Source of the DNA: Sinorhizobium meliloti
Lineage (GTDB): Bacteria; Pseudomonadota; Alphaproteobacteria; Rhizobiales; Rhizobiaceae
Length of the DNA stretch: 32,000 nt
Direction: 5' to 3'
NCBI RefSeq assembly: GCF_017876815.1
Contig: NZ_JAGIOS010000003.1
Location: 1,260,001 to 1,292,000, forward strand
The position numbers and the translations under genes were made by a program. Positions within the stretch are counted from its first letter, which is position 1, and every line of letters starts with the position of its first letter. This document shows positions 4,475 to 31,017 of the stretch, in pieces. A model generated the notes under the pieces. That model ran no database searches. It was not told the origin of the DNA and worked only from the letters and a program-made list of their open reading frames with translations.

Positions 4475-4766
4475 CGGCGAAGCGGAGCCGGAAGAATAGG
4501 GGTCGTTTGAGAACCGAGCCGATGCTCTCTTCGGGGCGTAGTTACGCCTAGACGATCAGCCGGGCCGCTCGTCCATTCTTTCGCTCCGCATTGTTGTAAT
4601 AGCTGGCCGCCTGGGTCACCGATTTGTGCAGCGACTGCTGCATCGCCTCTGGAAGAGGGATGCCGCGGTTTGCAGCCTCGGTCAGATAGCCGGACCTCAG
4701 CCCATGGGCCGAAAACAGCGCCGGATCAAGGCCGGCCTGTTCACAGCGTGCTTTCAGGACCAGATT
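4475..4766. repeat. Second member of a direct repeat pair with 1025-1312, covering the recombinase 3' end and its downstream flank
   Basis: See 1025-1312. The two copies have the same orientation and about 85% identity by eye. The repeat extends about 70 bp past the recombinase stop codon. Confidence 0.8.
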
Positions 4767-11371: not shown

Positions 11372-12472
11372 TCATGAGAATGACCCTGCGTGCGCGAGGG
11401 CGTTTTCCGATGAACACCGTCGTGTCCAGAATCCTGTCTTAAACCGATCGCGCCCCGCGCGGTACGAGCTGAGACGCTGAGCCAGGTAGCGTTGATAGGA
11501 AGCCCGTGATTTTTGTTCGAGGAGCGCTAGCTTATCCGGACGTGTGTCGAGCGCTATCGAGATTTCTTCTGCCATGCGGATAGCTGACCAAAGTCCGCGC
11601 CCTGCAAGCGGATCAAAGCTCGCCTGGGCATCGCCCAGTCTGAGGGAGGTGGGATCAACTTTCAGGGGCAACCAACGACAAGGAATGGGGATCGCTTGGA
11701 ACGCGATAGGCTGCGACAACTTGGTGACCAAGCTTGCAACACGGTCTGTGGCGTCTAGGACTCTCGAGACAATGGCGCGTGGCGTTTCACCAGCCAGCGA
11801 TTCCGCGTCAGTGATCACACCTAAGCACGCAAGGTTGTCAGGGCCGACTATCCCATAGGCCCATCCGTCCGCGGCAGCTTCAATTAGCAAGCGTGTGTCG
11901 AGCGAGTCGTCGACACCATCTATCCTGCCAAACGTGACGAGCGCGATAAGTCTGTCATTATAGCCGGTCGCGGACCGCAGACCTGACCGACTGTTGACGC
12001 ACCCCGACGCCAGAATTCGCCAGCTGACTTCATGCTGTGCTGCCGAGGCGAGCGTCCCAGTGTTTTCCGACAAGACTGGCTGCTCGTTGTCCGAAGCAAA
12101 TGTGACGCCCGCCTTCGCGACGTGGTCCCGAAGCAGAACTTCAAAGCTGGCGCGATCGACCGCCCATGCGGAGCCGAATGGTCCAGTCAGGTAATCATGG
12201 CAGTGGGCGTCGTCGGTATCCCACCGACACCAACTTCCTGGACATGGCCTAGCAACAGTGTGGATTTCGTGGGGGGAAAGTCCGAGCCTGAGCAAAACCG
12301 AGAGGGCAGAAGCTCCAAGGACATCGATACGGGACTGGCGGGATTGGCGTCTCGACGGGTTGATGAGCCTGACCCCCCAGCCGCGTTGTGCCAATGCCAT
12401 GGCCGCCACCAAAGCTGCAGGTCCATCGCCGACAATGTCCGCCTTAGATGTGGCGTGGGCGGCGATGTTCAT
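11372..12472 (-). CDS. LodB/GoxB-like FAD-dependent flavoprotein, expected to be the cofactor-maturation partner of the LodA-family oxidase
   Basis: This is a 366-aa ORF. Its N-terminal dinucleotide-binding motif is DIVGDGPAALVAAMALAQRGWGVRLI. Its start overlaps the stop of the LodA-like gene (ATGA at 12469-12472), which reproduces the canonical lodA-lodB order. Confidence 0.7.
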   Translation of the reverse strand: MNIAAHATSKADIVGDGPAALVAAMALAQRGWGVRLINPSRRQSRQSRIDVLGASALSVLLRLGLSPHEIHTVARPCPGSWCRWDTDDAHCHDYLTGPFGSAWAVDRASFEVLLRDHVAKAGVTFASDNEQPVLSENTGTLASAAQHEVSWRILASGCVNSRSGLRSATGYNDRLIALVTFGRIDGVDDSLDTRLLIEAAADGWAYGIVGPDNLACLGVITDAESLAGETPRAIVSRVLDATDRVASLVTKLSQPIAFQAIPIPCRWLPLKVDPTSLRLGDAQASFDPLAGRGLWSAIRMAEEISIALDTRPDKLALLEQKSRASYQRYLAQRLSSYRAGRDRFKTGFWTRRCSSENALAHAGSFS

Positions 12473-14412
12473 TGACCAAACCTCATTTTGCGAACCGCAA
12501 TGCGATCGGCCTCGTTGGAGAAGCCCGCCGCCCGTGCTCGCAAATCCGCTGCCGACAAGGTCACCAGTGGTGGAGCGGGAGCCCTAATGACACCATCAGC
12601 ACCAGCGCCGGAGACCTTGTTTTTGGTGCCAGGATGTGTTTCCACATAGATGATCGACGGGATCTGGTCGTCTCCTGCAACGCTCGGATAAGCCTCGACT
12701 ACACCCATGTTCCCGTATTGATGAACGAGATATTCTCCCCAGTCCTGACCTGGGCTATTGAGTGGCGCAAACCAACTCCTCCGTTGGTTGAACGCGTTCA
12801 GCCGTTCCTCCCTCGGAAGTGAGGGGTTGATGACTTTCAGGTAGTTCTCATGGGCGAGCACGTGGTTGGGAACCCGTGAGGGCCAGAAGCTTGGCGCATC
12901 GAATGCCAGGCCATCCTCATACCCTGCGAGGCAACCACCAGTGTCTATCTGCCATGGGAGCAGCATCCATCTGGATAAGGCACCCGGGTGCTGACCGTGC
13001 AGAGGTCCCGTCGAACCGAGCGCCGTGCCGACGTCCAGATGCGTACCGTACTCAGGTTCCGGCTTGGTAGCGCGCGCGATGCGGAATGCCTTTGAATAGA
13101 TCGACAGATGGCGCATTGGCCAGGTCAGCTCAATCCCCGGATGAAACGCGTCCGCCGCACAGAACTCCAGCGCCGCGCGATCCAGCGCGGCCGGCTGATC
13201 GCCGAGTGGATGCTGACCGATGGAGGACGGGGAAGGTGGGAGCGTGCCCCAATCGGCAATGAAATTGCCTTCGCTCCAGGCCTTGAGATAGCGCAAACGC
13301 TCGCCGCCTAGAGCGAGGTTCTGGTAGCGGTCGCTGTCGGGTCCCGTCCCGTAGGAATCTCCATAGAGCCATGGCCACGCAGCTGGATCGGAGACGTGAT
13401 CTGTTTGCTCGCGAAACATCTTGAAAATCGCCATGCGCAGCGGTTTGAACACGTCGACTGCGGCGCCGCCATGAAGATGATTTATCTGGTCGATTCTGTC
13501 CTCGTCCAGAAAATCGAACGGTGCAGTATGGCCGAAAACGGCGGCGAACGCCTTGTTGACCCACTGAAGGCCGCTCAAGCGAGCGAGAATGGGGTAAATG
13601 TCCTCCGTGAACGAGATCGTTGACTTCTGGGGAAGCCAATCCGCCTCCACAAAAAGATCTACAAGCAGGTCATATAGCGTCCGCCACGATTTGAGATCGG
13701 GGGCGTAGTTCGGAGGGGCGGAGACGACCCATGCTCCCTCGGTTGGTATCTCGTTGCCGTTGACGCGCACGGTTGCGTCGACGGGCCCGTCGGCGATGTC
13801 GTCATGCCAATCTTCCGCGTTGCCGAATGCGTCATTGTCTGAGTCGACGTAAGGTGGGGCGCCACTGGGCGAACTCGATACGCCATGACCACCAAGGAAA
13901 AGCAGACGCCCTTCCGCGGTTGTTCGGAGCTCACCGAGGTCTACGGCCACGCCCTTAAATGTACCCGTATCAAAGTGATGAGCTTCCGAACCGGCCTGAT
14001 TGCGGCCCGATATACAACGGCTGCCTGGATCGATCACAAGTTTGCGACGTTCATCAGGATCCAGGATCTTGGGATTTCGGCGTTCGACGATCGTATCCTT
14101 GAGCGTGTCCAAGTCCATCGCGTGTCGGAATTTGAACCAGGCGGCCTTGGCGTTCGCAACGTGAACGTTCCAGACGATATCGGCATTATCAGCGGTCAAT
14201 TCGGCAACAACATTGTCATCCTTGTCGTATCCATAGATACGGAACTCCACAGCTTCACGCTTGAGATGACCGCTCCTATCATGGGAGGTGTCGACTGGCC
14301 TCGGCGGGGGGGTGGCAACTTGCGGCGCCAGCAGATACTCATCCTGGCTGCTGCCGAGCCGGGCAATACCAATAGCCGGGTGTATTGACGCCCGGACGAT
14401 CCTGTTGACCAT
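12469..14412 (-). CDS. LodA/GoxA-family quinoprotein amino-acid oxidase, of the cysteine tryptophylquinone-dependent type
   Basis: A GAGGGG RBS precedes the ATG at 14412. The N-terminus MVNRIVRASIHPAIGIARLGSS matches the hallmark LodA N-terminal motif I-H-P-x-I-G-I-A-R-[VL]-G. The product is about 647 aa. Candidate cofactor residues are the Cys in LEFCAADAFHPGIELTW and the Trp in LLPWQIDTGGC. A LodB-like gene follows. Confidence 0.8.
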   Translation of the reverse strand: MVNRIVRASIHPAIGIARLGSSQDEYLLAPQVATPPPRPVDTSHDRSGHLKREAVEFRIYGYDKDDNVVAELTADNADIVWNVHVANAKAAWFKFRHAMDLDTLKDTIVERRNPKILDPDERRKLVIDPGSRCISGRNQAGSEAHHFDTGTFKGVAVDLGELRTTAEGRLLFLGGHGVSSSPSGAPPYVDSDNDAFGNAEDWHDDIADGPVDATVRVNGNEIPTEGAWVVSAPPNYAPDLKSWRTLYDLLVDLFVEADWLPQKSTISFTEDIYPILARLSGLQWVNKAFAAVFGHTAPFDFLDEDRIDQINHLHGGAAVDVFKPLRMAIFKMFREQTDHVSDPAAWPWLYGDSYGTGPDSDRYQNLALGGERLRYLKAWSEGNFIADWGTLPPSPSSIGQHPLGDQPAALDRAALEFCAADAFHPGIELTWPMRHLSIYSKAFRIARATKPEPEYGTHLDVGTALGSTGPLHGQHPGALSRWMLLPWQIDTGGCLAGYEDGLAFDAPSFWPSRVPNHVLAHENYLKVINPSLPREERLNAFNQRRSWFAPLNSPGQDWGEYLVHQYGNMGVVEAYPSVAGDDQIPSIIYVETHPGTKNKVSGAGADGVIRAPAPPLVTLSAADLRARAAGFSNEADRIAVRKMRFGQ

Positions 14413-14458
14413 GCTATTCCCCTCACGTCGATGTCTTGCAGCCGTTTTACAATTGCAA

Positions 14459-15185
14459 TTACTTCCCGAATTCGCGCCGCTCATGAAAGACCTCGACCGT
14501 CTCCAGGCCGTAGCTGCGTAGGACGCGTACACTTGATGTCGACGTCAGCCGCGTTTGGTCGCTCCAGGCCGGCAGCCATCGTATGCCAGCGTGTGTCGCC
14601 TTCCGGAACTTGCTCACCAGTTCGAGGCCGGGAACATCATATACCCCTTTCCGGCGATGCTTGTCCTGGACGGGCTCTGGGTCAGTATAGCGAATGCCCA
14701 AAGTCCGTGCGAAGGATTGGTGCAGAAATGAATTCCACGTTGAATTCGTTTCCGTCCGGTAGAACCGGAAAATCGCTGCCTCCGGAAACAGGAGAGGCAC
14801 GCTTGAGCCCAACCGTCAGGGGGCCCAAGGGAGGCGAGGGGAGAAGGAAATTCAAACTTAGGGCGGCGTCACGACGTTGTTCGGTGAGCGACGGATGCTG
14901 GCTTGATCGAAGCGAGATCTCGTTCGCCGAAATGACGTATGTGCGCGGGGCGCCGGGACCTGGCGATATCACTATTTCGCCGCGCACGCGCAGATTTGAA
15001 GAAAGACCGCGCGGTTCGACATAGACGCGCAGCACAGTGCCCTTACCTGCGATCAGCCTGACATCGTGAGCCACATTCTGGATCGCGCGCGTCGCTTCAA
15101 AGCCCAGAATCCGGAGCCCCGCTTGCACGGGGCCGGCGGATATCTTCCAGCGGCGGCGGGCTGTCGGAACGTCGATGAAAACCAT
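14459..15185 (-). pseudogene. Unknown gene between the catalase-like and LodA-like genes, apparently frameshifted near 14690-14730
   Basis: An AAGGGG RBS precedes the ATG at 15185. Frame A (167 aa, MVFIDVPTARRRWKISAGP...LIAGKGTVLRVYVEPRG...) stops at 14682. The +1 frame continues ...TLGIRYTDPEPVQDKHRRKGVYDVPGLELVSKFRK... to 14459, 46 nt before the LodA start. This fills an otherwise unexplained gap of about 270 nt. Confidence 0.45.
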
Positions 15186-17929: not shown

Positions 17930-18145
17930 ATGAGTACTGCCCTGGAGACTTTCGAAGGCGTCGGTGGAACGATCGAAGAGGCGCTGGCGGCAGCGCATCG
18001 TCAGATACTTCCCCGAGAGGGCAGGGATTTTACGACCTCGCGAGTAGTCGACTGGGGGATGCAGTTCGGTGGCTTTGTTGGCGAGACACTTTTCTACGTA
18101 CGCGTAGTTGAGGACAGAGACGCATCTTTCAAGACGAGGACCTGA
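17930..18145 (+). CDS. Small protein, possibly dodecin-like
   Basis: The 71-aa ORF runs from ATG 17930 with a GAGG motif 9 nt upstream. It reads MSTALETFEGVGGTIEEALAAAHRQILPREGRDFTTSRVVDWGMQFGGFVGETLFYVRVV. The pattern loosely resembles dodecin (..vG.S..s.EdA...A......lr...v.e......G.i..y.v.v). The evidence is weak. Confidence 0.3.
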   Translation: MSTALETFEGVGGTIEEALAAAHRQILPREGRDFTTSRVVDWGMQFGGFVGETLFYVRVVEDRDASFKTRT

Positions 18146-18149
18146 CTGG

Positions 18150-18447
18150 CGGTCTTCATCACGGCTCTTGCGAAAGTGTACGTATGCTTCTTTGCCCATT
18201 GCTTTGACCTTGGTGGTGAGATCCAAGATGTCGGTGGTCAGTCGGAGAAGCTTGATTGGGGTATGGGGGGTAGAAAAATGCCGGAGTTGTGATCGCACAT
18301 CCTTTTTGCGCAGGAAGCAAGCGCACAGCGAAACGATCTGTTCCCTGGACTGCACACCAACGCACTGAATTTCGTAGCGGTCGGGCCTGACGTGACGTTG
18401 TTCATGTTTGATCCGGCCACAAACAAGCCGGAACTGCGTTTAGGCAT
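18150..18447 (-). pseudogene. Degenerate C-terminal remnant of a tyrosine recombinase
   Basis: The minus frame reads ...CFLRKKDVRSQLRHFSTPHTPIKLLRLTTDILDLTTKVKAMGKEAYVHF. This resembles the H-x-LRH...G.DI..iq..lGH....T..Y.H box of integrases, but it is badly eroded. No upstream catalytic Arg region is present. Confidence 0.3.
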
Positions 18448-18600
18448 CGAGACAGCGCTGAATGTTCTGGAGATTGTTCAAGACGTCAAAGACAAGCGGT
18501 GCATTTCGCAGCTCTCTGCACGAACAAAACTGCCGCCGCTCAAATATAGTAGATAAACTAGGCGTGCGATGAAGCTAAATGTTTTGAGCGAGCGGGGGGC

Positions 18601-19557
18601 ATGAAAACCTATTTTGTCGCTACAGGGCTGTTGTTGAGCGGTTGTACGGTTCACCCGTTGCCGGAGGGGGTATCCCATCTCAATACGAGACAGATTGTTA
18701 ATCAAATAAGGTGCGAGGCCCGAGAATCCATCATTACCGCCATTGGACTTTACCTAACGACGTTTAGCGACAAAGTGACGTACCAAGCCGGAAAAAATTT
18801 GCTAGACAAGGACATTCAAATATCAGAGCTCAAATTCGATACTCTTGACCACGATGCGCAGTTTAACATTAAAAAGTATATCCCCGCCGCAATTGCGTAT
18901 GATTTCACGTTTGACATGTCGGAGGGCGGCGAATTTTCAGCGGATGCCGGGCTTCTAAACACCTTCACAAGGGGAGTTGTGAATGTTAACTTTGGAGCTG
19001 GAAGTCAAAGACAACGGCAGACTATTAGAAACTTTAGTGTCAGCGATACGTTTGGAGATCTTCTAGGATACGAGGTTGCGAGCCTCTGTGGGCGAGATAA
19101 CTCGACACAAAGGGCCGCAAACTACAACTACCCAATTACCGGGAAGATAGGCCTCGATGAAGTGGTGAGGACGTTCGTCGACCTCAATGAGTACCACCAT
19201 CTTAAAACCAAGGAAAAGGATGCGGTCCCTGTGATGAGCGACACATTCCATTTCCAGACGACGATTGGCGGCTCGGTGGCGCCGAAGGTAACGCTCAGCC
19301 CAGTTGGCAGTGGACCCCATTTGTCCGAAGCGGGCCTAAGGCTGGCCGGCTCGAGAACCGACATACACACGGTCATCGTCGCTCTCTCCTTGGCGCCGAG
19401 CACAACAGAACAGATATTGCGACGTAAAGTTGATTTCCTCGGCGCCCCATCTTCGAGGGAATTTGGGAGGACACCGGCTGAGGTAAATGCGTTGGACGCC
19501 ATCGACACCCAGGTTCAACGCCAGATCATCACAAATCTTTCGGGACGCGTCCAATAG
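18601..19557 (+). CDS. Lipoprotein of unknown function
   Basis: This is a 318-aa ORF. Its signal peptide carries a lipobox, MKTYFVATGLLLSGC (L-L-S-G-C). The local region is more AT-rich than its surroundings. The sequence is rich in beta-strand-like segments, and I recognise no family. Confidence 0.75.
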   Translation: MKTYFVATGLLLSGCTVHPLPEGVSHLNTRQIVNQIRCEARESIITAIGLYLTTFSDKVTYQAGKNLLDKDIQISELKFDTLDHDAQFNIKKYIPAAIAYDFTFDMSEGGEFSADAGLLNTFTRGVVNVNFGAGSQRQRQTIRNFSVSDTFGDLLGYEVASLCGRDNSTQRAANYNYPITGKIGLDEVVRTFVDLNEYHHLKTKEKDAVPVMSDTFHFQTTIGGSVAPKVTLSPVGSGPHLSEAGLRLAGSRTDIHTVIVALSLAPSTTEQILRRKVDFLGAPSSREFGRTPAEVNALDAIDTQVQRQIITNLSGRVQ

Positions 19558-19575
19558 AACAGGGGAAATACGATC

Positions 19576-19908
19576 ATGATTAACGAATATGAGGGGACAG
19601 CGCCGGTTGCTGTTACCCTGGACACCGTGATCAACGCAGTAAAAGCTCTGGTTGAGATTGGAAAGGATCGTGAGTTCGCCGAGCTTTGCGAAAGGCAGGG
19701 CATGAAGGTGGTTGCGCAGCCAGAACTAGTCAACGCACTAAAGCGGTTTCTCTTTGACAACAAGGCCCATGAGACGAACGACGCCGCGATGGTGCTCGTG
19801 CGGTCCCCCCGTGGGTCCGGCAGCTGTTTTCCGCTTGCGATGACTGCGGAGGAAAGTGATAGTCTGGTGAATCTGATGAAGACTGCTCAGCCGCCTCTGG
19901 CGCGGTAG
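19576..19908 (+). CDS. Hypothetical 110-aa protein, co-oriented with and 18 nt downstream of the lipoprotein gene
   Basis: A GGGGAAA RBS-like stretch precedes the ATG at 19576. The composition looks plausible for a protein, with no recognisable motif. Confidence 0.55.
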   Translation: MINEYEGTAPVAVTLDTVINAVKALVEIGKDREFAELCERQGMKVVAQPELVNALKRFLFDNKAHETNDAAMVLVRSPRGSGSCFPLAMTAEESDSLVNLMKTAQPPLAR

Positions 19909-19956
19909 GCCAGTGGAGCCACTTTTTATTGCGCTGGTGACTTCGTCCGCTTCGAC

Positions 19957-20124
19957 CTAGCTCCGCTCACTGCCGGCGCGGCAGCTGCTCGGGTAACGGC
20001 TTGCGGGAATGACGCCTGCGCTCGAAGCCCGAACTGTCGAGGAGCGTGCCGCCGCCTCGACGGCGTCAGCCTCCAGTTGCTCGCGCTGCAATTCGATCTG
20101 TTCGAAAACCCTTTCCCTTTCCAT
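19957..20124 (-). pseudogene. N-terminal remnant of an IS66-family TnpC-like transposase
   Basis: The 55-codon ORF reads MERERVFEQIELQREQLEADAVEAAARSS.... A shifted frame reads RRHSRKPLPEQLPRRQ. This resembles the QLEL..E.LEA ... RKPLPEHLPR segment of IS66 transposase N-termini. Confidence 0.35.
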
Positions 20125-20433
20125 CAAACTCACGCTGAACCCCCTCAGTTAAAGTCGCTTGCCGTCTGTATCACTGCAGGTCATGCCCCCCTTCGGGCTG
20201 CGACACAATGTTGACACACAACTATCCGGGCACGGTAGATTCTTCGATCGTCGTGTTTTCGCAACCGTAAGCGAGAAGACCTGTAGCTGATCTCATCGTC
20301 CTGGCGCTCGCGGCGCATCGAAAACGCTGATTTGCGCCAAAGGTCTTGGTTGCATTTCATTGGGGATATCACTCATTCTGATTGCAGCCGCGGAGCCAAG
20401 CATACAATAATCCCTCGACTCAACGAGGCAGAA

Positions 20434-23400
20434 ATGGGCGGCAAAAAGAAAAGCAAAACCAAGGTATCGCCGGAGCCGCGCAGATATGAAACTCCGCCCG
20501 CGGACGCAATCACGCTCCCTTCCTTGAAACGACATTCCGTGCTGCCCCTCGTCGATGTGGGAAGCCGACAGTTCGAGGAGATCTGCCGCGACCTAATGCG
20601 GCAAAGCTATCCGGATTTGCGCCCCGTAATGAAGAGACGAAGCGGGCAGCCGCAGTTCGGTGTCGACGTCGAAGGATTCAACGACCTGCAGGAGCCAGCG
20701 GTCGTTGTCTCGGCAAAATGCTACAAGGACATACAGCCCTGGGAGTTTCGGGCCTGGATCGAAGACTTCACCACGCACCTTGAGGGTCACTGGAAGGGAA
20801 AGGGCGTAAAAGAGTTCATCATCGCTGTATCGATCGAGCGAAACAACGACGATATGAACGATGCGGCGAGGGAACTCGCTCGCGTACTTGCCAGCAACAA
20901 CATCAAGTTCAAGATCTGGGACTCGGTCGAAATATCGGAAATGCTCGGAAAAGATCCGCGCTTGATCGACCGATATTTCAACGAAGCCTGGGTCAAGGCT
21001 CTTTCCGCTGATTTCGATGTAGGCACTTCGACTGCCGCAACCGGAGCCTTGGTCTCGGCGCGAGGTCCGACTGCGTCGCAGGGGGCGATCCTATCTCAGA
21101 TCGAAAGCCTCTACGTCGGCCCCCTCAACCAGATGCTCTCCGCCACCTTGGAAGACGCGGTCTCGGATCTTCGCCGCGGCAAACCGTCGAAGATAAAGCG
21201 GTGGTTGCAAGACGCCCGATCCGACTTCATCACATGGCAAGGCGCAGAGCCTGACCTCAAGGCGAAGGGGCTTCGCGCATCGGCAATGGTGATCCTGGGC
21301 GAGGGGGATCTCGATGGGGCCGAGCAGCTTCTCGATGAGGCGGACGCTTTTGTGCCACCGCCGGACCGAACGGCCCGAGCATACCTGATCAGAGCGCGAA
21401 GCGGCGGCGCGGCGGCCAGAAAATACTTGCAGGATCCGGACGGGCGCCGCGAGCGCGAATTGATGGCTGCGCTCCTGATCGAGGCTCGCCAGCCGAACAA
21501 GGCGCTCGAGCCACTTGCGCCGCTCATCGGTGACGAGGCCTCCGCGGAGGTGCTGCGGCTGCGCGCCATTGCCACCCTGTTAACGGGTGGGCGCCGATCA
21601 GAGGCTATTAATCTGGTAGTTTCGGCCACTACGAAGGAACCTGATTCGGCAATGGCGTTGTTTGCCCGTGGCGCGGTCCGGTTTGCCTGCGCGCTGGTCG
21701 ACGGGGTCGATCTGCAATTCGGCGGGGTGCCGAACCCGATCGGGAGGTCGTTGGTTCGCTCGACGCCGGAAGCCCGTACGCACCTGTCACATGCGGCTGC
21801 CGATTTCGACCGTCTCCTCGATACAGTGGAAGGCGACTTCAGGCGAGAAGTCGAAGTCTGGAAGCTGGCGGCATTGCTTCTCAATCCTGACACCAGAGCA
21901 GCGGGAAGATCGTTTGCCCGATCGTTGTTTGCTCGTGACGACTACGACCCGTCCGCAGTAGCGTGGGCACTGTTGAGCGGGCTGCCGCTGCGTCAAGGTC
22001 GGATCAAGAAAACACTTGGAGATGCCTTGCGCGAGGGGAAGGGAACTCCGGGCCATGTCGCCATCCTTGCGCTCATGGCAGCCGGCCCCAGCCACCCGGA
22101 GCGCGGGATGGCCGTGATCGAAAAGTTCGCCAGCATGTTCCCTGATGCCGGTGACTTCTTTGACCATTGGCGCGGTCAGTTCGCAACCAAGGATGGCGAA
22201 GACGCCGAAAGCTTCTCGGCGGTCATGCGACACACACTGGCTACCAAGGACGTCGGCCAGTTGTTCACATTCCTGACTACAGGCGACGTTCCCATCGAGA
22301 ACCTGCTCGCGGGTTCGGAGATGCTGGCATCGATGGACGCGTTCAGAGAGCTTGACGCTCTCCGGGGCAAACTCGCCCACCTTGGTTCCGGCCGCGCAGT
22401 CGAGCTTGCGGCGGTCGCCGCGCTGAACAACGGAAATCCGCGTGCTGCGATTTCAATCCTCAATTCCGCGCGCGCGGACGGCATCGACATGTCCAGGCGA
22501 CTGTCATACGTCCGCTTGAAATCGTGGGAGGCACTGGGCAGTCATCGGGAGCTAATAGACGACATTCAATCGCTGCTCAGAGAGCATGAAGATCCGCTTC
22601 TGCGGGACGAGCTCCTCAACGCCTACCTCCGGATCGGCTCTCTCGACGGAATTAGAGAGCAGGCGGAGTTCGTTCTGAAGCATGGCGAAATCGACCAGCG
22701 GAAGGCCGTTCAAGTCGCCCTTGCGCTTCGTTCGTATGCTCCGGAGATCGCAAGGCAGGCGCTCGAAGGAATTGGTACGGAGGGCCTCCCGGAGGATCTT
22801 TCCGGCGCCGTCCTCGAACTGTCTAGCAGGCTCGGTCTTGCCACGCTTCAGGACGAAATAATCCGGAAAATGGTCGCCAATTCGGCAAGCAAGGAGACCG
22901 TTCAACGATTCGACAGCGTCGAGGACGTCCTCAAGGTCCTGGAAGAGCACGCCAAGGAATACCGCTCACGTCTTGATCAATGGATGCACGGTCGGCTGCC
23001 TGCGGCCGCGGCAATGCGTGGCGATCCGAAAGACTACATTTCGCTATTCCTCGCTCAACCTGCGACGCGGCATAACCGGTTAGGAGACGCCTTGCCGATG
23101 ATGCTACTATCCGGAAAGCCGCATGACGCAGGCGCGCTGCCAGACGGAGAGCGTCCGGCGTTGCGCCTGGATCTCAGTGCTCTCCTGATTGCGGCTCGCT
23201 GCGAGTTGCTGGATGACCTCGAGCACTGTTTTCAGATTCATATTCCGGAGTCGCTTCCGGAAGTCCTCGTCCTAGTCACCGCAGAATTTCATCAGGTCCT
23301 GCCCCTGGTGGCCGGGGCTGTAAGGACCCTTGCGAGCGGCGACAGCGCGGTCGAAATCTGCCAGAGCCCTCCCGATGGGGTCATGGAGTTGTTCGCGTTC

Positions 23401-24684
23401 CAGTCGGGCACGGACGAGGAGCAGAAAGCTGCCGCAGCCCATGCGCTCCACGAGGCCTATCTCGCCGGGCATATTCTGAAGTCGCGGATGGATGAACTTC
23501 TTTCGATACTGAGTATGTCGTTGCCGTCCAAGCCGTCACAGGTCGACCGACTGCTTCTCGGCCGCGGCGCGGTCGTGGAGCTCGCGCAGCTTGAAGTACT
23601 CGAGCAACTCGCTCGCGGCTTCCCGCTGATAGTCTCGCAGAAAGACATCGACTGGCTTTCCGGGCAGTTGGTCGAGGCGGAAGACGAGCAGCGCATGCGG
23701 ACGATGCTGCTCGAGCTTACGAAGACAGTATCGGAGAAACTTGCAGCATCGACCTGGAAGACCGTGCTGCCCAAGCGGTCCGCCGAAAACATCGAACGGT
23801 CCAGAAATATGCCACCCCATCTGCGATGCCTGGTGGAGACGCTGCCCGAAGAAGAGGAGCTCGGGAAAACGCTCTTCTGGATCGAAGACAGGACGCTCTC
23901 CCAGCAGCCCATTGGCGGCTCCCTTACGATGCGGGAGATCTTGTCCCATCTATCTCGAAAGAACAGGCTGTCCCGCGCCCGCATCTCGAAGCTCCATGGG
24001 GAGCTCCGGCAGTGGGGTTACCTCTTCATGCCGATCGACATCGAGGATCTTGCGACGATAATCGAGGCCTCGCCGGTGGTCGATGGAGAGCTTGTCGAGA
24101 ATGCTCGTGTCTCGGAAATACGCCGGTGGTTTGCGCGAGACGTTCAGCATCTCATATATCTCGAGCAGAAAAGCGACGTCGACAAGCAGGGCAGGGTCGT
24201 CGGTGAGGTTCGAAGAACGCTGGACCTATCGGGCCTGTCGCGCGATCTTCTGGCGAGGATCTGGCGCTCGCAGGTCGGCACAGACTCGGATCGCGCGGCG
24301 CGGTCCAACTGGATATGGCAGAACCTCCGAGTGACGCATCTGCCTCCTCCTGTCGGGACCGGTGCCACTGAAGGGCTTCGTTCCATTGCTGCTCTGGCAG
24401 GCGTCCAGGCCTTCACCTTGCCTATCCAAGCGGAGCTGTACAGCGCAAGGCTCTCTTCCCGTGCCGATTCCGATGAAGCCGCCCCTTTGTTCCGAGATGA
24501 TTGCGCCCCCGGTTTCCGGGATGATCTCGCCCCCTGTTTAGTGGGGTCTGCAGGCGATGATTGTTGTCAGTTCATTCAGGCGAGGTGTCAAGCTTTGCGC
24601 GGTAGATTTCGGCGCAGACTATCGCCGCTCAATTCGATGCGGTGGGCATTGTGGACCAACCTGTCGAGTATGGCATCGGCGTAG
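20434..24684 (+). CDS. 5' portion of a giant gene of about 2047 codons, disrupted by IS21. Native sequence ends at 24461 and the last ~74 codons are read-through into the IS.
   Basis: A GAGG RBS lies 5 nt before the ATG at 20434. The N-terminal 200 aa resemble Mrr-like PD-(D/E)xK nucleases: FEEICRDLMRQSYPDL...QFGVDVEGFNDLQEPAVVVSAKCYKD...EFIIAVS...IKFKIWDSVEISEML. The remainder is long and Leu/Ala/Arg-rich, with a helical-repeat appearance. I found no GxxxxGK[ST] motif. Confidence 0.85.
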   Translation: MGGKKKSKTKVSPEPRRYETPPADAITLPSLKRHSVLPLVDVGSRQFEEICRDLMRQSYPDLRPVMKRRSGQPQFGVDVEGFNDLQEPAVVVSAKCYKDIQPWEFRAWIEDFTTHLEGHWKGKGVKEFIIAVSIERNNDDMNDAARELARVLASNNIKFKIWDSVEISEMLGKDPRLIDRYFNEAWVKALSADFDVGTSTAATGALVSARGPTASQGAILSQIESLYVGPLNQMLSATLEDAVSDLRRGKPSKIKRWLQDARSDFITWQGAEPDLKAKGLRASAMVILGEGDLDGAEQLLDEADAFVPPPDRTARAYLIRARSGGAAARKYLQDPDGRRERELMAALLIEARQPNKALEPLAPLIGDEASAEVLRLRAIATLLTGGRRSEAINLVVSATTKEPDSAMALFARGAVRFACALVDGVDLQFGGVPNPIGRSLVRSTPEARTHLSHAAADFDRLLDTVEGDFRREVEVWKLAALLLNPDTRAAGRSFARSLFARDDYDPSAVAWALLSGLPLRQGRIKKTLGDALREGKGTPGHVAILALMAAGPSHPERGMAVIEKFASMFPDAGDFFDHWRGQFATKDGEDAESFSAVMRHTLATKDVGQLFTFLTTGDVPIENLLAGSEMLASMDAFRELDALRGKLAHLGSGRAVELAAVAALNNGNPRAAISILNSARADGIDMSRRLSYVRLKSWEALGSHRELIDDIQSLLREHEDPLLRDELLNAYLRIGSLDGIREQAEFVLKHGEIDQRKAVQVALALRSYAPEIARQALEGIGTEGLPEDLSGAVLELSSRLGLATLQDEIIRKMVANSASKETVQRFDSVEDVLKVLEEHAKEYRSRLDQWMHGRLPAAAAMRGDPKDYISLFLAQPATRHNRLGDALPMMLLSGKPHDAGALPDGERPALRLDLSALLIAARCELLDDLEHCFQIHIPESLPEVLVLVTAEFHQVLPLVAGAVRTLASGDSAVEICQSPPDGVMELFAFQSGTDEEQKAAAAHALHEAYLAGHILKSRMDELLSILSMSLPSKPSQVDRLLLGRGAVVELAQLEVLEQLARGFPLIVSQKDIDWLSGQLVEAEDEQRMRTMLLELTKTVSEKLAASTWKTVLPKRSAENIERSRNMPPHLRCLVETLPEEEELGKTLFWIEDRTLSQQPIGGSLTMREILSHLSRKNRLSRARISKLHGELRQWGYLFMPIDIEDLATIIEASPVVDGELVENARVSEIRRWFARDVQHLIYLEQKSDVDKQGRVVGEVRRTLDLSGLSRDLLARIWRSQVGTDSDRAARSNWIWQNLRVTHLPPPVGTGATEGLRSIAALAGVQAFTLPIQAELYSARLSSRADSDEAAPLFRDDCAPGFRDDLAPCLVGSAGDDCCQFIQARCQALRGRFRRRLSPLNSMRWALWTNLSSMASA
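24453..24461. repeat. Left copy of the 9-bp direct repeat (CTCTTCCCG) flanking the IS21-family element
   Basis: It is identical to 27060-27068 and directly abuts the IS terminus TG. Confidence 0.9.
24462..24534. repeat. IS21 multiple terminal repeats at the istB-proximal end, three copies about 24 bp apart
   Basis: The repeats are TTCCGATGAAGCCGCCCC, TTCCGAGATGATTGCGCCCCC and TTCCGGGATGATCTCGCCCCC. They are the reverse-complement counterparts of the repeats at 26962-27056. Confidence 0.8.
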
Positions 24685-25325
24685 GTTGGGTCGCCAATGA
24701 CGCCGTGCCATGCGGACACGGGAAGTTGGCTGGTAATGATCGTTGATTTGCGTCCATAGCGATCTTCGAGGATTTCCAGCAGGTCGTGGCGGGCCTGTTC
24801 GTTGAGCGGCTCGAGCCCCCAATCATCCAGTATCAGGAGCTGAACATGGCCCAAGGTTCGTTGCAGGCGGGCGTAGCGGCCATCACCACGCGCGAGCGCA
24901 AGCTGGGCAAACAGCCTTGGGACACGCTGATAGAGAACTGAGCGATCGTCTCGGCAAGCCTTGTGGCCGAGAGCGCAAGCCAACCAACTCTTTCCGACAC
25001 CCGAGGGTCCGCAAATGGCCAGATTGTCATGGGCGTTGATCCAGTCGCCACCGAGCAGCTTCATGAAGAGAGCACGGTCGAGGCCGCGGTCGGCGCGATA
25101 GTCGACATCTTCTGGGGTGGCCTGGTGGCGAAGCTTGGCAAACCTGAGGCGTGCCGCAAGCTTCCGATCGTAACGGGAGCTCCACTCCCGTTCGAGCAGC
25201 AGTCCGAGCCATTCGGCGTGCGAGAGATGTTCGGCTTCGCCGTTGGCAACAAGTTCGCCAAAGGCCTTTGCCATGCCGGCCAGGCCCATGGCATTCAATT
25301 TATCCAGTGTTGGATGGGCAAGCAT
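24588..25325 (-). CDS. istB: IS21-family helper ATPase IstB
   Basis: The 245-aa ORF has a Walker A motif (GPSGVGKSWLACALG) and a Walker B motif (LLILDDWG). It follows istA after a 12-nt gap. Confidence 0.95.
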   Translation of the reverse strand: MLAHPTLDKLNAMGLAGMAKAFGELVANGEAEHLSHAEWLGLLLEREWSSRYDRKLAARLRFAKLRHQATPEDVDYRADRGLDRALFMKLLGGDWINAHDNLAICGPSGVGKSWLACALGHKACRDDRSVLYQRVPRLFAQLALARGDGRYARLQRTLGHVQLLILDDWGLEPLNEQARHDLLEILEDRYGRKSTIITSQLPVSAWHGVIGDPTYADAILDRLVHNAHRIELSGDSLRRNLPRKA

Positions 25326-25337
25326 CTTTCGTTCTCC

Positions 25338-26888
25338 TTAGTGGTAATAGCGAGGTCCGCGGATGTTGGCGTGATGGATCGGTTCATGCGGCGCCGCTCC
25401 ATTTGAGGCAGCCGTCCGGTCAAGGTGATTGTCGAGGATGGATCGCACCGAGCCATAGGTTCGTGCGCCAATCTCCAACGCACGGCCGCAAGCGGCATTG
25501 ACCCTGTCGCGGCCGAAGCTCTTGTTGAGGCGGATGATGCCGAGGCAAGCTCGAAAGCCCTGCTCGGGATGAGGCCTGTCGGCAAGAATGCGCTCGCACA
25601 ACAGCGCAACATCCGGCCCCATCGCAGAGGCTTCGCGTTGAATCCGTTCAATCGTCCAGTCGGCAAAGCGGCGATGCGCAGAGGGCATATGATCGGGGAT
25701 CGTCGTGTGCTTGCCGTTGCCGCTGGAGCGCCGGTGAGCGGCAATTCGCTCGCCCTTGTGGAAGATCTCGATCGTATTGGCGGTGATACGAGCCTCGACC
25801 TGCTCGCGGGCAAAGCGATAGGGAACGGAATAATAGTGCCGCTCGATCTCGACGTGATAATCCAGCCCGGCGCGCCGGATACGCCATTCGGCAAAGACAT
25901 AACGTTCGACAGGCAGCGGTCGCAAAGCCGGACGATCAAGCTCCTCGAACAATTGGCGGCGCGTGGCGCCGACACGGCGCAGAACGCGCTTATCATTGAG
26001 ATCATGGAGCAATTGGCCAATCGCCGCATTGACCTCGGCCAAACTATAGAAGATGCGATGGCGCAGCCGGCCCAACAGCCAACGTTCGACGATACGAACC
26101 GCAGCTTCCACTTTCGCCTTGTCCCGCGGGCGTCGCGGCCGCGTCGGCAAGACGGCGCTGCCATAATGGGCCGCCATCCCGCAATACGTCCGGTTGACCT
26201 GGGGATCGAAGTGGCAGGCCTTGATGATCGCTACCTTGGCATTGTCGGGAACCAGCAAGGCTGGCGCACCGCCAAAGAACTCCAGCGCCAGGATATGGCA
26301 TTCAATCCAGTCGGGAAGCGTCTCGCTCCAACGTGCCTGCGCATATGAAAGGCTGGATGCTCCCAGAACCGCCACGAACAGGTGCGCCTGCCGTGTCTTG
26401 CCGGACAGCCGATCAACGACAACCGTGACCGTGTCGCCGGCGTAGTCGACGAACAGCTTGTCGCCGGCCGCGTGATCCTGCCGCATCGTCACAGGCAACT
26501 TCATCGCCCAGCCGCGGTAGAGGTCACAGAAGCGACTGTAACGATAGCCCTCCGGATAACGGCTGATGTATTCGTCCCAAAGGATCTGCAGCGTCATATG
26601 CTTGCGCTTCAGCTCGCGGTGGACCTGCGTCCAGTCCGGCTCAGGGCTCCGACGATGACCCGTCTTCGTCCCGCCTGCCTTGTAAAGCGCCGCTTCCAGG
26701 ACTGCATCGCTGATGTCGTCACCCAACGGCCACGATAGCTCCGCAATGGCCGCACGCCGAAGCGTCTCGCGCACCGTCGATGGCGCAGCTCCAACCCGAA
26801 CCGCGATCGACTTGTGGCCAAGTCCTTGTTCGAAGCGATATCTCAATATCTCGCGGACACGCCGCATCTCCAGTCTCTCCGCAGGCAT
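25338..26888 (-). CDS. istA: IS21-family DDE transposase IstA
   Basis: The 516-aa ORF has an N-terminal HTH (MRRVREILRYRFEQGLGHKSIAVRVG). Integrase-core landmarks are LFVDYAGDT, LVPDNAKVAI and PRDKAKVE. Confidence 0.95.
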   Translation of the reverse strand: MPAERLEMRRVREILRYRFEQGLGHKSIAVRVGAAPSTVRETLRRAAIAELSWPLGDDISDAVLEAALYKAGGTKTGHRRSPEPDWTQVHRELKRKHMTLQILWDEYISRYPEGYRYSRFCDLYRGWAMKLPVTMRQDHAAGDKLFVDYAGDTVTVVVDRLSGKTRQAHLFVAVLGASSLSYAQARWSETLPDWIECHILALEFFGGAPALLVPDNAKVAIIKACHFDPQVNRTYCGMAAHYGSAVLPTRPRRPRDKAKVEAAVRIVERWLLGRLRHRIFYSLAEVNAAIGQLLHDLNDKRVLRRVGATRRQLFEELDRPALRPLPVERYVFAEWRIRRAGLDYHVEIERHYYSVPYRFAREQVEARITANTIEIFHKGERIAAHRRSSGNGKHTTIPDHMPSAHRRFADWTIERIQREASAMGPDVALLCERILADRPHPEQGFRACLGIIRLNKSFGRDRVNAACGRALEIGARTYGSVRSILDNHLDRTAASNGAAPHEPIHHANIRGPRYYH

Positions 26889-26961
26889 CCCGTTCCTTCC
26901 TCGTCACGTCGAAGGAAGAAACTTCACACCAGCAGAACACCCACGCCAGATGCTTTCCGAT

Positions 26962-27059
26962 GGGGGCGGCATCATCTCGGAATCAGGGGGCGACTATTTC
27001 TCGGAATTGGGGGGCGAGATCATTTCGGAATCAGGGGGCGGATTGCCTCGGAATTTGCA
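26962..27059. repeat. IS21 multiple terminal repeats at the istA-proximal end, four copies with about 24-bp period
   Basis: The repeats are GGGGGCGGCATCATCTCGGAATC, GGGGGCGACTATTTCTCGGAATT, GGGGGCGAGATCATTTCGGAATC and GGGGGCGGATTGCCTCGGAATT, followed by TGCA. Confidence 0.8.
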
Positions 27060-27068
27060 CTCTTCCCG
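27060..27068. repeat. Right copy of the 9-bp direct repeat (CTCTTCCCG)
   Basis: It is identical to 24453-24461 and lies in the same codon phase of the interrupted ORF. Confidence 0.9.
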
Positions 27069-29184
27069 CGCCAGCAAGGCCTACATGGAATGGGCGCTCT
27101 CGTCGGCAATCGGTCCGATGGTCGATGCGGACGCCGAGATCCTAGAGACGATCTCGGACATGACCGCAGCAATGCTGGCCCGTATCGTCGAACGGGATGA
27201 AGCCACGAAATCCGACTCCGACGGCGAGGAAATCGCCAAAGCATTTCGCCTGATTGTGCGGAGGTTCCTCGCTCTTCTGCCTGACGAGTGGGAGGAACGG
27301 GTCACGAGCCGACGTGACCTCAAGCGGACGCTCGGGATCGAACGCGTGATGCTCATTACCATCGATGGCAAGCTCCAGGTTTCGGTTCGAGTTCTGCAGG
27401 AGGCTATCGAGGGATGCCTGCAGAAGGGGACGAATCGCGCGGACATCAAGCTGTATGACGGGAAAACTAATGCCCGCCTGGAACTCGGCTCCGACGATGC
27501 TGATCTGCCGACTGCACTGCTCAAGATCGGAAAGCGGAAGCTGCCGCTCCATAGGAGCACTCTGGCACTCGTGCATCCAGTGCAAAACGTTCGCGAGCAG
27601 CTTCTGGCTGATCTGGAGGGTAAGGGCAGCGTGGGACGTCCATTCACCGCAGAGTATCTTGTCGCGTTAGGGAGCGAGGAGGATGTCGAAAAACGGGTGG
27701 CCGATTTCCACCATCGCTTGAGCTCTGACTTTGCGAGGCGCAAGGAACTCATGGCGGAAAGCCTGTCTAGGTCAGGAACTAGCCAGGTCTCGGATTTGGA
27801 CCTCCCGCCTGTCGGCGAGATGCTGAACTATCTCGGTCTGCCCGCAGAGTTTCGAGGATCGCCACATGAGTTGGCCGAGGCCTCGTTGAAGGCGCTGCGC
27901 GGCTCCCTGGGCATCGAACGGGCCATGTGCCGGGTATCAAGTCTTCCTGTCGAAATACCCAGGAACGAGATGGTCGAATTTGCGAAAGCAATTTCCGGCA
28001 AGGCCGACGACTGGCCCAGGGAAGAGTCAGTGCTATCCGCGCTCTTCTGGCTAATGTGCCAGACGGCGACCGGGCAGCCTGTCACGGACGACGAAGCGTG
28101 GTTGAAGCGCAGCATTACGAAGGAACGCGCAAAGCTGCTGACCACCTTCATTCGGCACAGCGCTCGACAAGCGCTAGAAAGTGACGAATGGAGGGCCCTG
28201 TCTCCCGATTTCGCTTTTTGCCTAATCTGGGTGCACGCCGACCAGCTTGCTCGAGCCTTCGCCTCGTCAAACATCGATCTTCCTCAATTTACAGCGTGGC
28301 TCGCGAGAAAATCCCGGTCCACGTTTTTCGATTTCGAGCGTGAGGCGATCTGGGACGACTGGGTAGTCAACATATCCTTGCAGCTTCCAGCTACCCTTCT
28401 TATCGCAAAGCTCGTCGGGCGTCTGTTGTCCGGCGGGGTTTCAATCCCTGAGCATTTGAAGGATCTACTGGGGCAGCAGGTGGGCGAACGATGGACTCCT
28501 TTCCCGGAGGCGATCGTTCCAACACCTGAGGGTGCGCCGGAGAACTTCTGGGCGGCTAAGGATCCCATGCCGCCCATGATCAAAGATGGCTGGCTTGGAG
28601 AAGATCATCCCTTTCAAGAGCGCGACCAGGAAAAGCTTCTGTCGCGCATTTTTGAAGAGGCTGAGGACGGCGACCCGGCTTTCTTCGCGTCGATGGTCAG
28701 TCTCCTGATCGACATCGACAAGGTGCAAGCCGAGCGTTTGGACTTAATTCTTGAGAGGCTTGATTTGGCACTCTCGGCGCCTGGGGCGAAATCGGAACCT
28801 AGCTACGGTTTGGTAACCGATCTCGTTGCGCAGGTGTTGGGTCGGAAAGGGGACCCGGAAGCGTTTGGAAGGTGGCTTCGAAAGGCAACCGAGGAGGGCG
28901 CGCAATTGAAGCCTCACGGCAGGCTGACCTTATCCGACGAACATGAAGGCGGTCGCGTTTTGGTCGCATTGCTCAACGCCATCTATATCTTCGCGAAATG
29001 CGGGCAGCATGAACTACCAGAACGGATACGGACGATCACAACGCATTTTAGAAGTGTCGTGGAGATTTGGCCGGCGTCGCTGCTACCGGTAATCGGTTGT
29101 CTCAACAGAATGGCGCAGGAACTCGGCGTGGACATTTCCAAACATGACATCCTGCCTGCGCTTCTCGATTTAAGAAGCCTCTGA
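27069..29184 (+). CDS. 3' portion (704 codons plus stop) of the IS21-disrupted giant gene
   Basis: The 26713-29184 frame is continuous with the left half once the IS and one repeat copy are removed (..ARLSS-R-ASKAYMEWALSS..). The sequence is helical and repeat-like with no recognisable catalytic motif. The part of the ORF upstream of 27069 is IS sequence. Confidence 0.85.
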
Positions 29185-29632: not shown

Positions 29633-29706
29633 GCTTTCAACGACGAAAGCTCGGAAATCGCTTGATAAGAATCTTATATACGTCAACGAAATACGAGATT
29701 GGCTTC

Positions 29707-31017
29707 ATGATATTTGCGCGAAGGGCTCTGCAGCGACGATTGAGAGAGCTGAGAGCTAAGATAGGCGACAGTGCGGTCGACGGCATCGTTGCTCGCCTCA
29801 ATCTACCCGGCCGGGACCGCGTCGCAGCAATGTGGGAAGTCGTTGTCCTGCATGGACTGGCGGAATGCGGCAACCTTGTTAGTGAGCAACCACTGCCTTC
29901 AGGTAGGCGCCCGGATGCTTGGTTCGACAACGGGCGCCTTAGGTTCACTGCCGATGTGACGACCGCCTCTGACGAAGGGTTGGACAAACAGAACCCCTAC
30001 TCGAAGCTCAGCGACCTCATCGAGCGAGCGAAAGGGAAACTGGGTTTGCCGATTGGTGGCGTTGACGTGCAGGTCCATTCCAGAACTCACGAAAGCTCGC
30101 GAGGGAAGCGCACCTTTCTCAAGCTCCCGCCCGTCGGGAGACTCGAGTCTTTTGTCCAAGACAATCTCATGCCTCGATTTCGAGAGCAACTCGACGCCGG
30201 GGAAGCGGTACTGCGGGCGTCCATCGACGACGATCAGCTTGGTATCGAAGTCGCCATTGATCCATCGAAGTCACCGTACAGTTCCGTCGGCTTCACCGCA
30301 TATAACCTTCCAACAATCAAGGATCGAAATCCGCTCTATAGCGCGCTTAAGGAAAAAGCAGAGCAGCTGCATGGCGCAGACGGTATCACCGGCGTGATAC
30401 TTGGAGATGGCGACTGCGCCGCACTGGCCGAACGAGAGGCCTCGCAGCACTACGTGTCAGCTGACGCGATCGCCAGAGAGTTGCTGCGTCAATATTCCTC
30501 GGTTAACTTCGTTCTCCTGCTTACCATCCGTGAGAAGCGGTGGCACTATTTCCCGCCGAATGATCCCAGACGCCGTGTCCACCCAATTTTGGTATGTAGG
30601 GAAGGGGATCCTCTGCGAACGGAACTGGAAGCGATATTCGGCGCGATGCTCGAACAATTCCCACCGCCGGTGATGATGCCAAAGAACGGGTCGCTGCGGG
30701 CGCGGGAAAAGGGCTTCGATTCCGGACATCATGGAGCATATCAGTTGGAAGGCTGCAAAATACGAATGAGCTCGCGGGAACTGATGGAGGTTCTCGCCGG
30801 GCTGCGAACGCTTGACGACAATGGGGCGCGTAATGTGGAAGCCAGCCGTCGTCTTCCATCGGCACCAAACCCGACGAAGCAGGCTTTTCTCCGCAAACTC
30901 CTAGACGGGCGGCTTCCGGTTCGCATCAGTGTTGATGAAACAGGCGAGAACGACAACGATGATTGGATCGAGTTTGAGTTCGGCGAGGCCGATGCGGCGA
31001 TAGCGCCCTTCGAGTGA
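29707..31017 (+). CDS. Hypothetical 436-aa protein downstream of the giant gene
   Basis: The ORF frame spans 29662-31017. The likely start is the ATG at 29707 (MIFARRALQRRLRELRAKI), and the RBS is weak. The N-terminal segment WEVVVLHGLAECG...GRRPDAWFDNGRLRFTADVTTASD has an E...PD...D-x-T arrangement that vaguely recalls PD-(D/E)xK folds. Confidence 0.65.
   Translation: MIFARRALQRRLRELRAKIGDSAVDGIVARLNLPGRDRVAAMWEVVVLHGLAECGNLVSEQPLPSGRRPDAWFDNGRLRFTADVTTASDEGLDKQNPYSKLSDLIERAKGKLGLPIGGVDVQVHSRTHESSRGKRTFLKLPPVGRLESFVQDNLMPRFREQLDAGEAVLRASIDDDQLGIEVAIDPSKSPYSSVGFTAYNLPTIKDRNPLYSALKEKAEQLHGADGITGVILGDGDCAALAEREASQHYVSADAIARELLRQYSSVNFVLLLTIREKRWHYFPPNDPRRRVHPILVCREGDPLRTELEAIFGAMLEQFPPPVMMPKNGSLRAREKGFDSGHHGAYQLEGCKIRMSSRELMEVLAGLRTLDDNGARNVEASRRLPSAPNPTKQAFLRKLLDGRLPVRISVDETGENDNDDWIEFEFGEADAAIAPFE

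Follow-up and report, generated by a model that had tools for sequence, protein, structure and literature searches.

The window analysed here, a stretch of 32,000 nucleotides from Sinorhizobium meliloti (contig NZ_JAGIOS010000003.1, positions 1,260,001 to 1,292,000), contains two open reading frames (ORFs) on the same strand, of 1450 codons (20332-24684) and 823 codons (26713-29184), with two minus-strand ORFs lying between them. Are the two same-strand frames the halves of a single giant gene and, if so, what would its product do? An earlier note, made from the letters alone, had read here a giant protein of 2047 residues with an Mrr-like nuclease module at its N-terminus, a long helical body and no nucleoside triphosphatase (NTPase), and had taken it for a candidate conflict or defence protein. 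The reading that we favour, with a probability of roughly two in three, is that the locus is a stand-alone, NTPase-free conflict gene, recently disrupted by an insertion sequence (IS) of the IS21 family and carried on a Sinorhizobium megaplasmid of the pSymA type, whose product joins a modular head to a constant body and is a long-form relative of the predicted TPR-GreA/B-C-PIN system.

A giant gene interrupted by an IS21-family element

The two ORFs that separate the halves are the istB and istA genes of an IS21-family element, recognised by their Pfam matches, and a short direct repeat flanks the element on both sides. The parts of the interrupted gene are the following.

20434-24461, plus strand: 5' portion of the giant gene, encoding residues 1-1342 and ending two bases into codon 1343; open frame from the ATG at 20434
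24453-24461, no strand: left copy of the 9-bp target-site duplication, CTCTTCCCG; direct repeat flanking the IS
24462-27059, minus strand: IS21-family insertion sequence, which breaks codon 1343; TG...CA ends, inverted and multiple terminal repeats, Pfam matches
24588-25325, minus strand: istB; Pfam IstB_IS21, 1.8e-70
25338-26888, minus strand: istA; Pfam rve and Mu-transposase C-terminal domain
27060-27068, no strand: right copy of the target-site duplication, CTCTTCCCG; direct repeat flanking the IS
27069-29184, plus strand: 3' portion of the giant gene, from the last base of codon 1343 through residues 1344-2047 to the stop; in frame after excision

Excision of the IS together with one copy of the 9-bp repeat joins 20434-24461 to 27069-29184 in a sequence of 6144 nt, that is 2047 codons and a stop, with no internal stop in the repaired frame. 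This frame is colinear with intact homologues of about 2040 amino acids; the first methionine (ATG 20434) is kept in at least 90% of the homologues, and the junction at residue 1343 lies without gaps in an alignment to intact homologues, at 74-77% identity. Since the repaired frame is open and its junction is gap-free against these homologues, the insertion is recent and is the sole lesion of the gene. The inactivation by an IS, which had already been read from the letters, is borne out by the element, its 9-bp duplication and the restored frame; likewise, the length of 2047 residues and all of the peptide strings quoted in the earlier note are found in the repaired protein. The coordinates given there for the giant protein (20434-24461) mark a real frame but cover only residues 1-1342, the rest being encoded at 27069-29184.

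Full-length, 100% identical copies of the element occur in S. meliloti plasmids, and matches to it were found in 193 plasmid records. Several sub-terminal repeats of about 24 bp (GGGGGCG..ATCATCTCGGAAT) are present at both of its ends in inverted orientation (24473-24539 and 26962-27054) and are presumably multiple transposase-binding sites. The frame of the broken gene continues for 74 codons into the IS, up to a stop at 24682-24684, and an ATG at 26713, within the IS, starts a frame that extends into the 3' fragment, so that the locus may give rise to truncated or fusion products. The break after residue 1342 parts the GreA/B-C-like domain described below and the C-terminus from the head; presumably, the system no longer works in the window.

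The N-terminal head and its exchange among relatives

When the whole 2047-residue protein was compared with Pfam, NCBIfam and PADLOC, a weak TPR match (Pfam TPR_19) was the only result; domain signals emerged only from slices of the protein and from its relatives. Together with AlphaFold2 (AF2) models, whose confidence is given as the predicted local distance difference test (pLDDT), these signals outline the putative architecture listed here.

20536-21018, plus strand: candidate Mrr-type PD-(D/E)xK nuclease head, residues ~35-195; Pfam Mrr_cat, AF2 topology, conserved residues; key residues E48 (20575-77), D78 (20665-67), E80, S93 (20710-12) and K95 (20716-18)
21019-21075, plus strand: linker of low confidence that joins head and body, residues ~196-214; AF2 pLDDT <50 at 194-223
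21076-22878, plus strand: TPR-type alpha-solenoid, residues ~215-815; AF2 pLDDT ~90, all helical hairpins; Foldseek; Pfam TPR_19
22918-23121, plus strand: predicted helix-turn-helix (HTH) module, residues 829-896, corresponding to Pfam PF24407 HTH_upstream_double_PIN; transferred from relatives
23146-23763, plus strand: PIN-like module 1, residues ~905-1110; PF20698 in relatives, AF2 beta-alpha-alpha-beta alternation
23851-24438, plus strand: PIN-like module 2, residues ~1140-1335; conserved residues, AF2 alpha/beta, Pfam name 'double PIN'
27346-27555, plus strand: small beta-rich domain, residues ~1436-1505, corresponding to Pfam PF24388 Permuted_GreAB-C; AF2 E-E-H-E-E-E-E at 1438-1502
27556-29181, plus strand: C-terminal all-helical region, residues ~1506-2047 (~540 aa); AF2 helices, pLDDT ~85-95

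The head is a plausible Mrr-type nuclease. In particular, residues 28-195 alone score 21.3 bits with Pfam Mrr_cat (PF04471), whose cut-off is 21 (E=3.1e-4; aligned to positions 6-114 of the 115 in the profile), a marginal match just at the gathering threshold, and the same family is matched by 20 of 26 relatives, with a best value of 6.8e-6. The AF2 model of residues 1-900 (pLDDT 85) shows an alpha-beta-beta-beta-alpha-beta core at 39-132, formed by H39-58, E63-66, E78-82, E88-95, H102-114 and E127-132; the Foldseek search with this model was dominated by TPR solenoids and so gave no structural check of the head, and profile searches of PDB sequences with the head and with the body returned chance matches only (e.g. 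chemokines, MCM22). As in the catalytic domain of Mrr and type IV restriction endonucleases, almost the whole profile is covered, the predicted core fold is present, and the chain has a conserved F-E helix together with the motifs G-x-D and x-K-x-Y. The head differs from Mrr in having Ser93 in place of Gln or Glu, in an additional conserved H-W and F-x-L-A-V segment, and in being joined to a body of 1,850 residues rather than to a DNA-recognition domain.

Conservation was judged over an alignment of 123 heads. D78 is present in 120 of 120 sequences and K95 in 118 of 121. Either E or Q is found at position 48, whereas position 93 holds S in 76 and Q in 45 of 121 heads, and S in the window protein. 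The motif is therefore D...S-x-K (S93-A94-K95) and not the D...E-x-K-like arrangement that had been proposed for it, whereas the broader description of an Mrr-like nuclease head agrees with the profile match, the modelled core and the invariant D78 and K95. E80 and S93 occur together in 51 of 53 cases, and a hydrophobic residue at position 80 accompanies Q93; this covariation suggests a catalytic residue that has been relocated rather than one that has decayed, although shared ancestry and clade structure may produce the same pattern.

These residues bear directly on the main rival explanation, according to which the Mrr-like head would be a catalytically dead module that binds DNA or senses, for instance, modified or foreign DNA, and the PIN-like RNase site would be the only effector. 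Ser replaces the canonical residue of (Q/E)xK in the window protein and in the 76 heads counted above, the Mrr_cat score lies only at its threshold and, in the body, PIN-like module 2 has the best conserved charged residues, all of which fit such a reading. Against it stand the invariance of D78 and K95 and the covariation of E80 with S93, as expected of a relocated catalytic residue, together with what relatives carry in the same position: genuinely toxic enzymes (TIR, PNP, trypsin, hydrolase, HNH-like) fill the slot of the head in them, which argues that this slot is an effector position. On balance, we consider a dead head unlikely.

The exchange of heads emerged from the relatives of the repaired protein. 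A first homology search returned 45 proteins, mostly of about 2040 amino acids, all alignable over their full length and all annotated as 'hypothetical', those with a named source being from Rhizobiales. An exhaustive HMMER search with a profile of the ~950-aa HTH-PIN-PIN-GreAB-C body (residues 815-1760) extended the family to 2,461 clusters (50% identity) at E<=1e-3 and 1,397 at E<=1e-30; the best 150 of these matches run end to end with E<1e-133, for a profile that includes the window sequence, and are mostly 2.0-2.13 thousand residues long. The Mrr head is present in 120 of the 165 relatives with a complete body. In others, Pfam places on the same body TIR (two examples), PNP_UDP, Trypsin_2, alpha/beta-hydrolase, SMEK_N or an NNH2 adaptor; heads resembling HNH and Cap4 were identified only by eye, and some relatives are headless.

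The head is also found outside this family. Two proteins, P0049 and P0050 (from Pseudomonas fluorescens and a metagenome), are NACHT and HEAT STAND proteins of ~1,630-1,720 amino acids with an N-terminal Mrr-like head, which has the canonical D...Q-x-K and matches the head profile with E about 1e-9. The giant protein thus appears, from these comparisons, to be one of a large superfamily whose members keep the body but exchange the head among toxic effectors. Because heads are swapped on the same body and this head recurs on NACHT STAND proteins, the interpretation as a conflict protein, first put forward in the earlier note, gains support.

The composite body and the absence of an NTPase

The body had been described as Ala/Leu/Arg-rich and TPR-like. 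The composition of the repaired protein (L 13.0%, A 10.9%, R 8.2%) agrees with the first term, and the second holds for the solenoid at 215-815, whose best Foldseek matches in the PDB are the TPR solenoids of Ctr9, Ski3, IFT-A and APC (E 5e-8 to 1e-5). As a description of the whole body, however, 'all-TPR' was rejected, since the predictions also place in it an HTH, a pair of alpha/beta modules resembling PIN and a beta domain related to permuted GreA/B-C. For residues 848-2047, AF2 gives a compact and confident model (pLDDT 88, predicted template modelling score 0.82) made up of two alpha/beta modules and a small beta domain, followed by helices; Foldseek matches of the C-terminal part are importin/HEAT-like and insignificant.

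The assignment of these modules comes from relatives. PF24407 is matched by 7 of them, with up to 50.7 bits, and all of these matches map to residues 829/847-896 of the window protein. Matches of relatives to PF20698 (PIN-TPR-GreABC) map to residues 912-973, in PIN-like module 1, where the window protein itself has none; one relative, P0048, reaches 28.0 bits (cut-off 27.8) and the others 19-22 bits. The sole acidic residue of this module that is nearly invariant is D913 (23170-72), which 177 of 184 sequences share and which sits in an L-x-L-D-x-[ST]-A motif. In PIN-like module 2, W1149, D/E1151-D1152-R1153, E1222 and E1258 are kept in >93% of 184 diverse relatives, and its charged residues are the most strongly conserved of the whole protein. 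PF24388 is matched by 15 of 45 relatives' slices aligned to residues 1422-1520 (best E 3.8e-7), no other family recurs among them, and two weak matches with coordinates fall at the same place, ~1436-1505. The distant relatives P0041-P0048 carry PF24407, PF20698 and a weak Mrr_cat, with P0048 passing the curated cut-offs for all three; a hidden Markov model (HMM) built from the close family only matches the outgroups that bear PF24407 and PF20698 over HMM positions 46-1757, with E 1e-40 to 1e-190, and the Pfam matches are therefore transferable to the window protein.

The lack of an NTPase, read by eye in the earlier note, is confirmed. The 2047-residue protein contains neither G-x4-GK[ST] nor [AG]-x4-GK[STN], Pfam and NCBIfam scans of it reveal no P-loop families, and no conserved P-loop is found across 185 relatives, in which Walker-A-like strings occur in 8 only and at unrelated positions. 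The protein could still be imagined as a cryptic NTPase of a STAND-like kind, its P-loop too diverged to be recognised and its activation NTP-dependent, as in Avs and NLR-like proteins: the NACHT proteins P0049 and P0050 share its Mrr head, and its layout of head and sensor resembles that of Avs. Yet what is common to the NACHT relatives is limited to residues ~27-195, and, apart from the two PIN-like modules, the confident body model contains no segment that resembles a Rossmann-like NTPase. With neither a Walker A, nor a profile match, nor such a segment in the model, a cryptic NTPase was rejected as a description of the body, and we regard this explanation as extremely improbable.

Relationship to known systems, proposed function and genomic setting

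The closest known counterpart is a computational prediction, the stand-alone TPR-GreA/B-C-PIN counter-invader system (Kaur, Iyer, Burroughs, Aravind, eLife 2021; PMC8195603). In that paper, a constant portion of TPR, GreA/B-C and PIN follows either EAD10 or one of 13 effectors (restriction endonuclease (REase), HNH, TIR, SIR2, PNPase, trypsin and others); GreA/B-C is proposed to bind the beta-prime coiled coil of RNA polymerase, PIN to cut the extruded transcript, and the head to kill the cell upon failure (PMC8195603). Like this system, the giant protein is encoded by a single stand-alone gene, has a variable N-terminal effector or adaptor head and a TPR array, and lacks an NTPase, both systems being predicted; both would also share a PIN of the PF20698 type and a GreA/B-C-related domain, which in the giant protein are deduced through its relatives. 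They differ in order, since the published form runs head, TPR, GreAB-C and PIN whereas the giant protein would have an HTH and two PIN-like modules followed by a permuted GreA/B-C-like domain, no canonical GreA_GreB domain being matched anywhere in it. They differ in size as well: members in the published table, the short form to which proteins such as WP_012655030.1 and WP_017307658.1 belong, measure 916-1438 aa (e.g. an Agrobacterium vitis REase+TPR+GreAB-C+PIN protein of 1290 aa; PMC8195603), against 2047 aa with an additional helical C-terminus of ~540 aa. Five accessions of close relatives are missing from the table, and at least two members of the long family that it lacks, WP_017965225.1 and WP_024707233.1, were public at that time; the page on which WP_017965225.1 would sort contains only proteins of 916-1438 aa (PMC8195603). 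By its predicted domains, the giant protein is thus a long-form relative of the TPR-GreA/B-C-PIN system and not a member of the published short form.

The long architecture has a trace in Pfam. Relatives match PF24407 and PF24388 at residues 829-896 and ~1436-1505, and the names of the two models describe the architecture of the giant protein, which shows that curators had already seen it, although the window protein itself falls below the reporting thresholds for both. A literature search found no paper on the PF24407/PF24388 domains or on the long form, the DefensePredictor paper concerns unrelated PIN systems only, and no family of PADLOC-DB v2 was matched at E<=1. The earlier statement that the protein fits no named defence family is therefore true for PADLOC, while a named predicted relative exists (PMC8195603) along with the two Pfam families.

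Two further groups invite comparison. Avs and NLR-like STAND proteins also combine an N-terminal effector with a large repeat sensor, and the Mrr-like head is found on NACHT proteins too, but the giant protein has no NTPase domain of any kind. In DSR2, a single-protein, NTP-independent phage defence, a long alpha-solenoid both binds a phage protein and restrains a SIR2 head. The likeness to DSR2, a toxic head on a helical-repeat sensor without an NTPase, would be one of analogy: no homology is detectable, the Foldseek match to 8zc9 is not significant (E=0.033, probability 0.14), and DSR2 has no PIN, HTH or GreA/B-C modules.

The neighbourhoods of the family were judged from 8 homologous loci. 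No gene is common to the window flanks and these loci, and no conserved partner emerged. Mobile elements (IS66, Tn3, Tn7-like elements, integrases), toxin or abortive-infection genes (AbiEii, Phd antitoxin, toxin-antitoxin genes) and genes with a possible part in defence or conflict (a large Ser/Thr kinase with PP2C, PLD with AAA, and a GASH GTPase-associated system) are among the neighbours of the homologues. Judged by inspection of the 8 loci and not by statistics, this variable setting with its many mobile and defence genes is characteristic of a conflict gene that stands alone. In Pararhizobium qamdonense p4, the GASH (GTPase-associated system all-helical) gene lies with a metallophosphoesterase gene downstream of the homologue. 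GASH is another predicted conflict system from the research group that described TPR-GreA/B-C-PIN. In the Rhizobium leguminosarum chromosome (AQUD01000001.1), the homologue adjoins a complete recQ, and a second recQ-like gene lies ~9 kb off, with large hypothetical proteins and an integrase-like gene between the two, so that the locus resembles an island that was inserted at recQ or duplicates it. On Rhizobium beringeri pRlX4 (CP140800.1, 12318-14717), a protein of 799 aa matches the head and the TPR only, with 30% identity over residues 1-780, beside genes for a 'phage infection protein' and a DUF4365 protein; this plasmid match was rejected as a short-form member, being REase+TPR only, and an architecture of head and TPR alone therefore also exists.

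Some observations would also suit a protein with no part in immunity, that is, a plasmid-borne regulator or scaffold of host transcription or RNA turnover, or a factor of plasmid competition or addiction, whose links with mobile elements would reflect accessory carriage. Several homologues lie near plasmid backbone genes (repABC, RHE_PE00001, ScpB), and TPR, HTH and GreA/B-C-like modules are found in regulators as well. However, the swapping of toxic heads and a head common to NACHT STAND proteins are hallmarks of conflict systems, the distribution is patchy and strain-specific (a megablast of window positions 18000-24461, which needs roughly 85% DNA identity, found no plasmid match in PLSDB), and the gene was readily lost to an IS here. 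We therefore judge a non-immune role to be improbable, and a role of the giant protein against phages or plasmids is probable.

For the conflict gene proposed here, we infer a whole mechanism along these lines. An Mrr-type DNase head would be tethered by a flexible linker to a constant body acting as sensor and regulator. The GreA/B-C-like domain and the HTH would dock on transcribing RNA polymerase or on a nucleic-acid complex, while the TPR or helical arrays would read a cue of the invader. An invader-dependent state could be sensed either in this docking or through proteins recognised by the TPR and helical arrays. The conserved PIN-like site would then cut RNA as a first response and, finally, sensing would lead to a conformational change or oligomerisation that, without NTP hydrolysis, would free the Mrr head on DNA, with the result that the invader is stopped or the cell is killed. 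A broader generalisation, which we put forward as speculative and rather doubtful, would see in the long-form proteins of ~2,000 aa a widespread class of single-polypeptide, NTP-independent immune sensors that sit on RNA polymerase through a circularly permuted GreA/B-C, cut RNA by a composite double PIN and then release a swappable head, the transcription machinery being surveyed as a signal of infection.

Several points weigh against the favoured reading. Ser occupies head position 93, where Mrr has Gln or Glu, and the nuclease activity of the head is therefore uncertain. PIN-like module 1 has lost most of the canonical acidic residues. The window protein has no direct Pfam match to any PIN, HTH or GreA/B-C model (E<=0.1; isolated slice, E<=10), so that these assignments are transferred from aligned relatives, several of which score below Pfam cut-offs. 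A Foldseek search of the whole model of residues 848-2047 against PDB and BFVD returned nothing significant and so gives the PIN and GreA/B-C folds no structural confirmation. Binding to RNA polymerase is taken purely from the name of a domain, and enrichment in defence islands was judged from the 8 loci only.

If functional in its intact copies, the system would add to the bacterial immune repertoire an NTPase-free, single-gene design with a logic of guarding RNA polymerase, and a five-year-old computational prediction, that of GreA/B-C as RNA polymerase-docking modules in immunity, would become testable by defined point mutants. Intact, cloneable homologues are present on rhizobial plasmids; intact relatives include WP_018210729.1 of S. 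medicae WSM1115 pWSM1115_3 (56% identical over residues 1-1335) and WP_017965225.1 of R. leguminosarum (74% identical). The family is large and its proposed logic distinctive, yet it was anticipated computationally, and the window copy is dead; this copy shows the rapid loss of such costly genes to IS insertion on symbiosis megaplasmids.

The surroundings of the gene fit an accessory region of a megaplasmid of the pSymA type: the first 9 kb of the window are ~96% identical to S. meliloti pSymA-type megaplasmids and, as the earlier note had recognised, the region carries toxin-antitoxin and IS genes. Its other features are listed below.

76-558, plus strand: RES-domain toxin, upstream of the giant gene
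3447-4007, minus strand: AbiEii nucleotidyltransferase fragment, upstream of the giant gene
4548-5705: tyrosine integrase
6043-6420, minus strand: VapC-type PIN toxin, upstream of the giant gene
7377-8045: IS66 transposase fragment
11372-12472, minus strand: FAD-binding partner, following the LodA-type gene
12469-14532, minus strand: LodA-type L-lysine epsilon-oxidase gene; LodA_N 1.3e-70, LodA_C 1.2e-30

The ORFs that flank the giant gene, of 318 aa (18601-19557, plus strand) and 110 aa upstream and of 451 aa (29662-31017, plus strand) downstream, have no Pfam match and no counterpart beside the homologues; the N-terminus of the 318-aa product is lipoprotein-like (LLLSGC). Further upstream, the two genes at 11372-14532 on the minus strand form a quinoprotein amino-acid oxidase operon carried on the megaplasmid.

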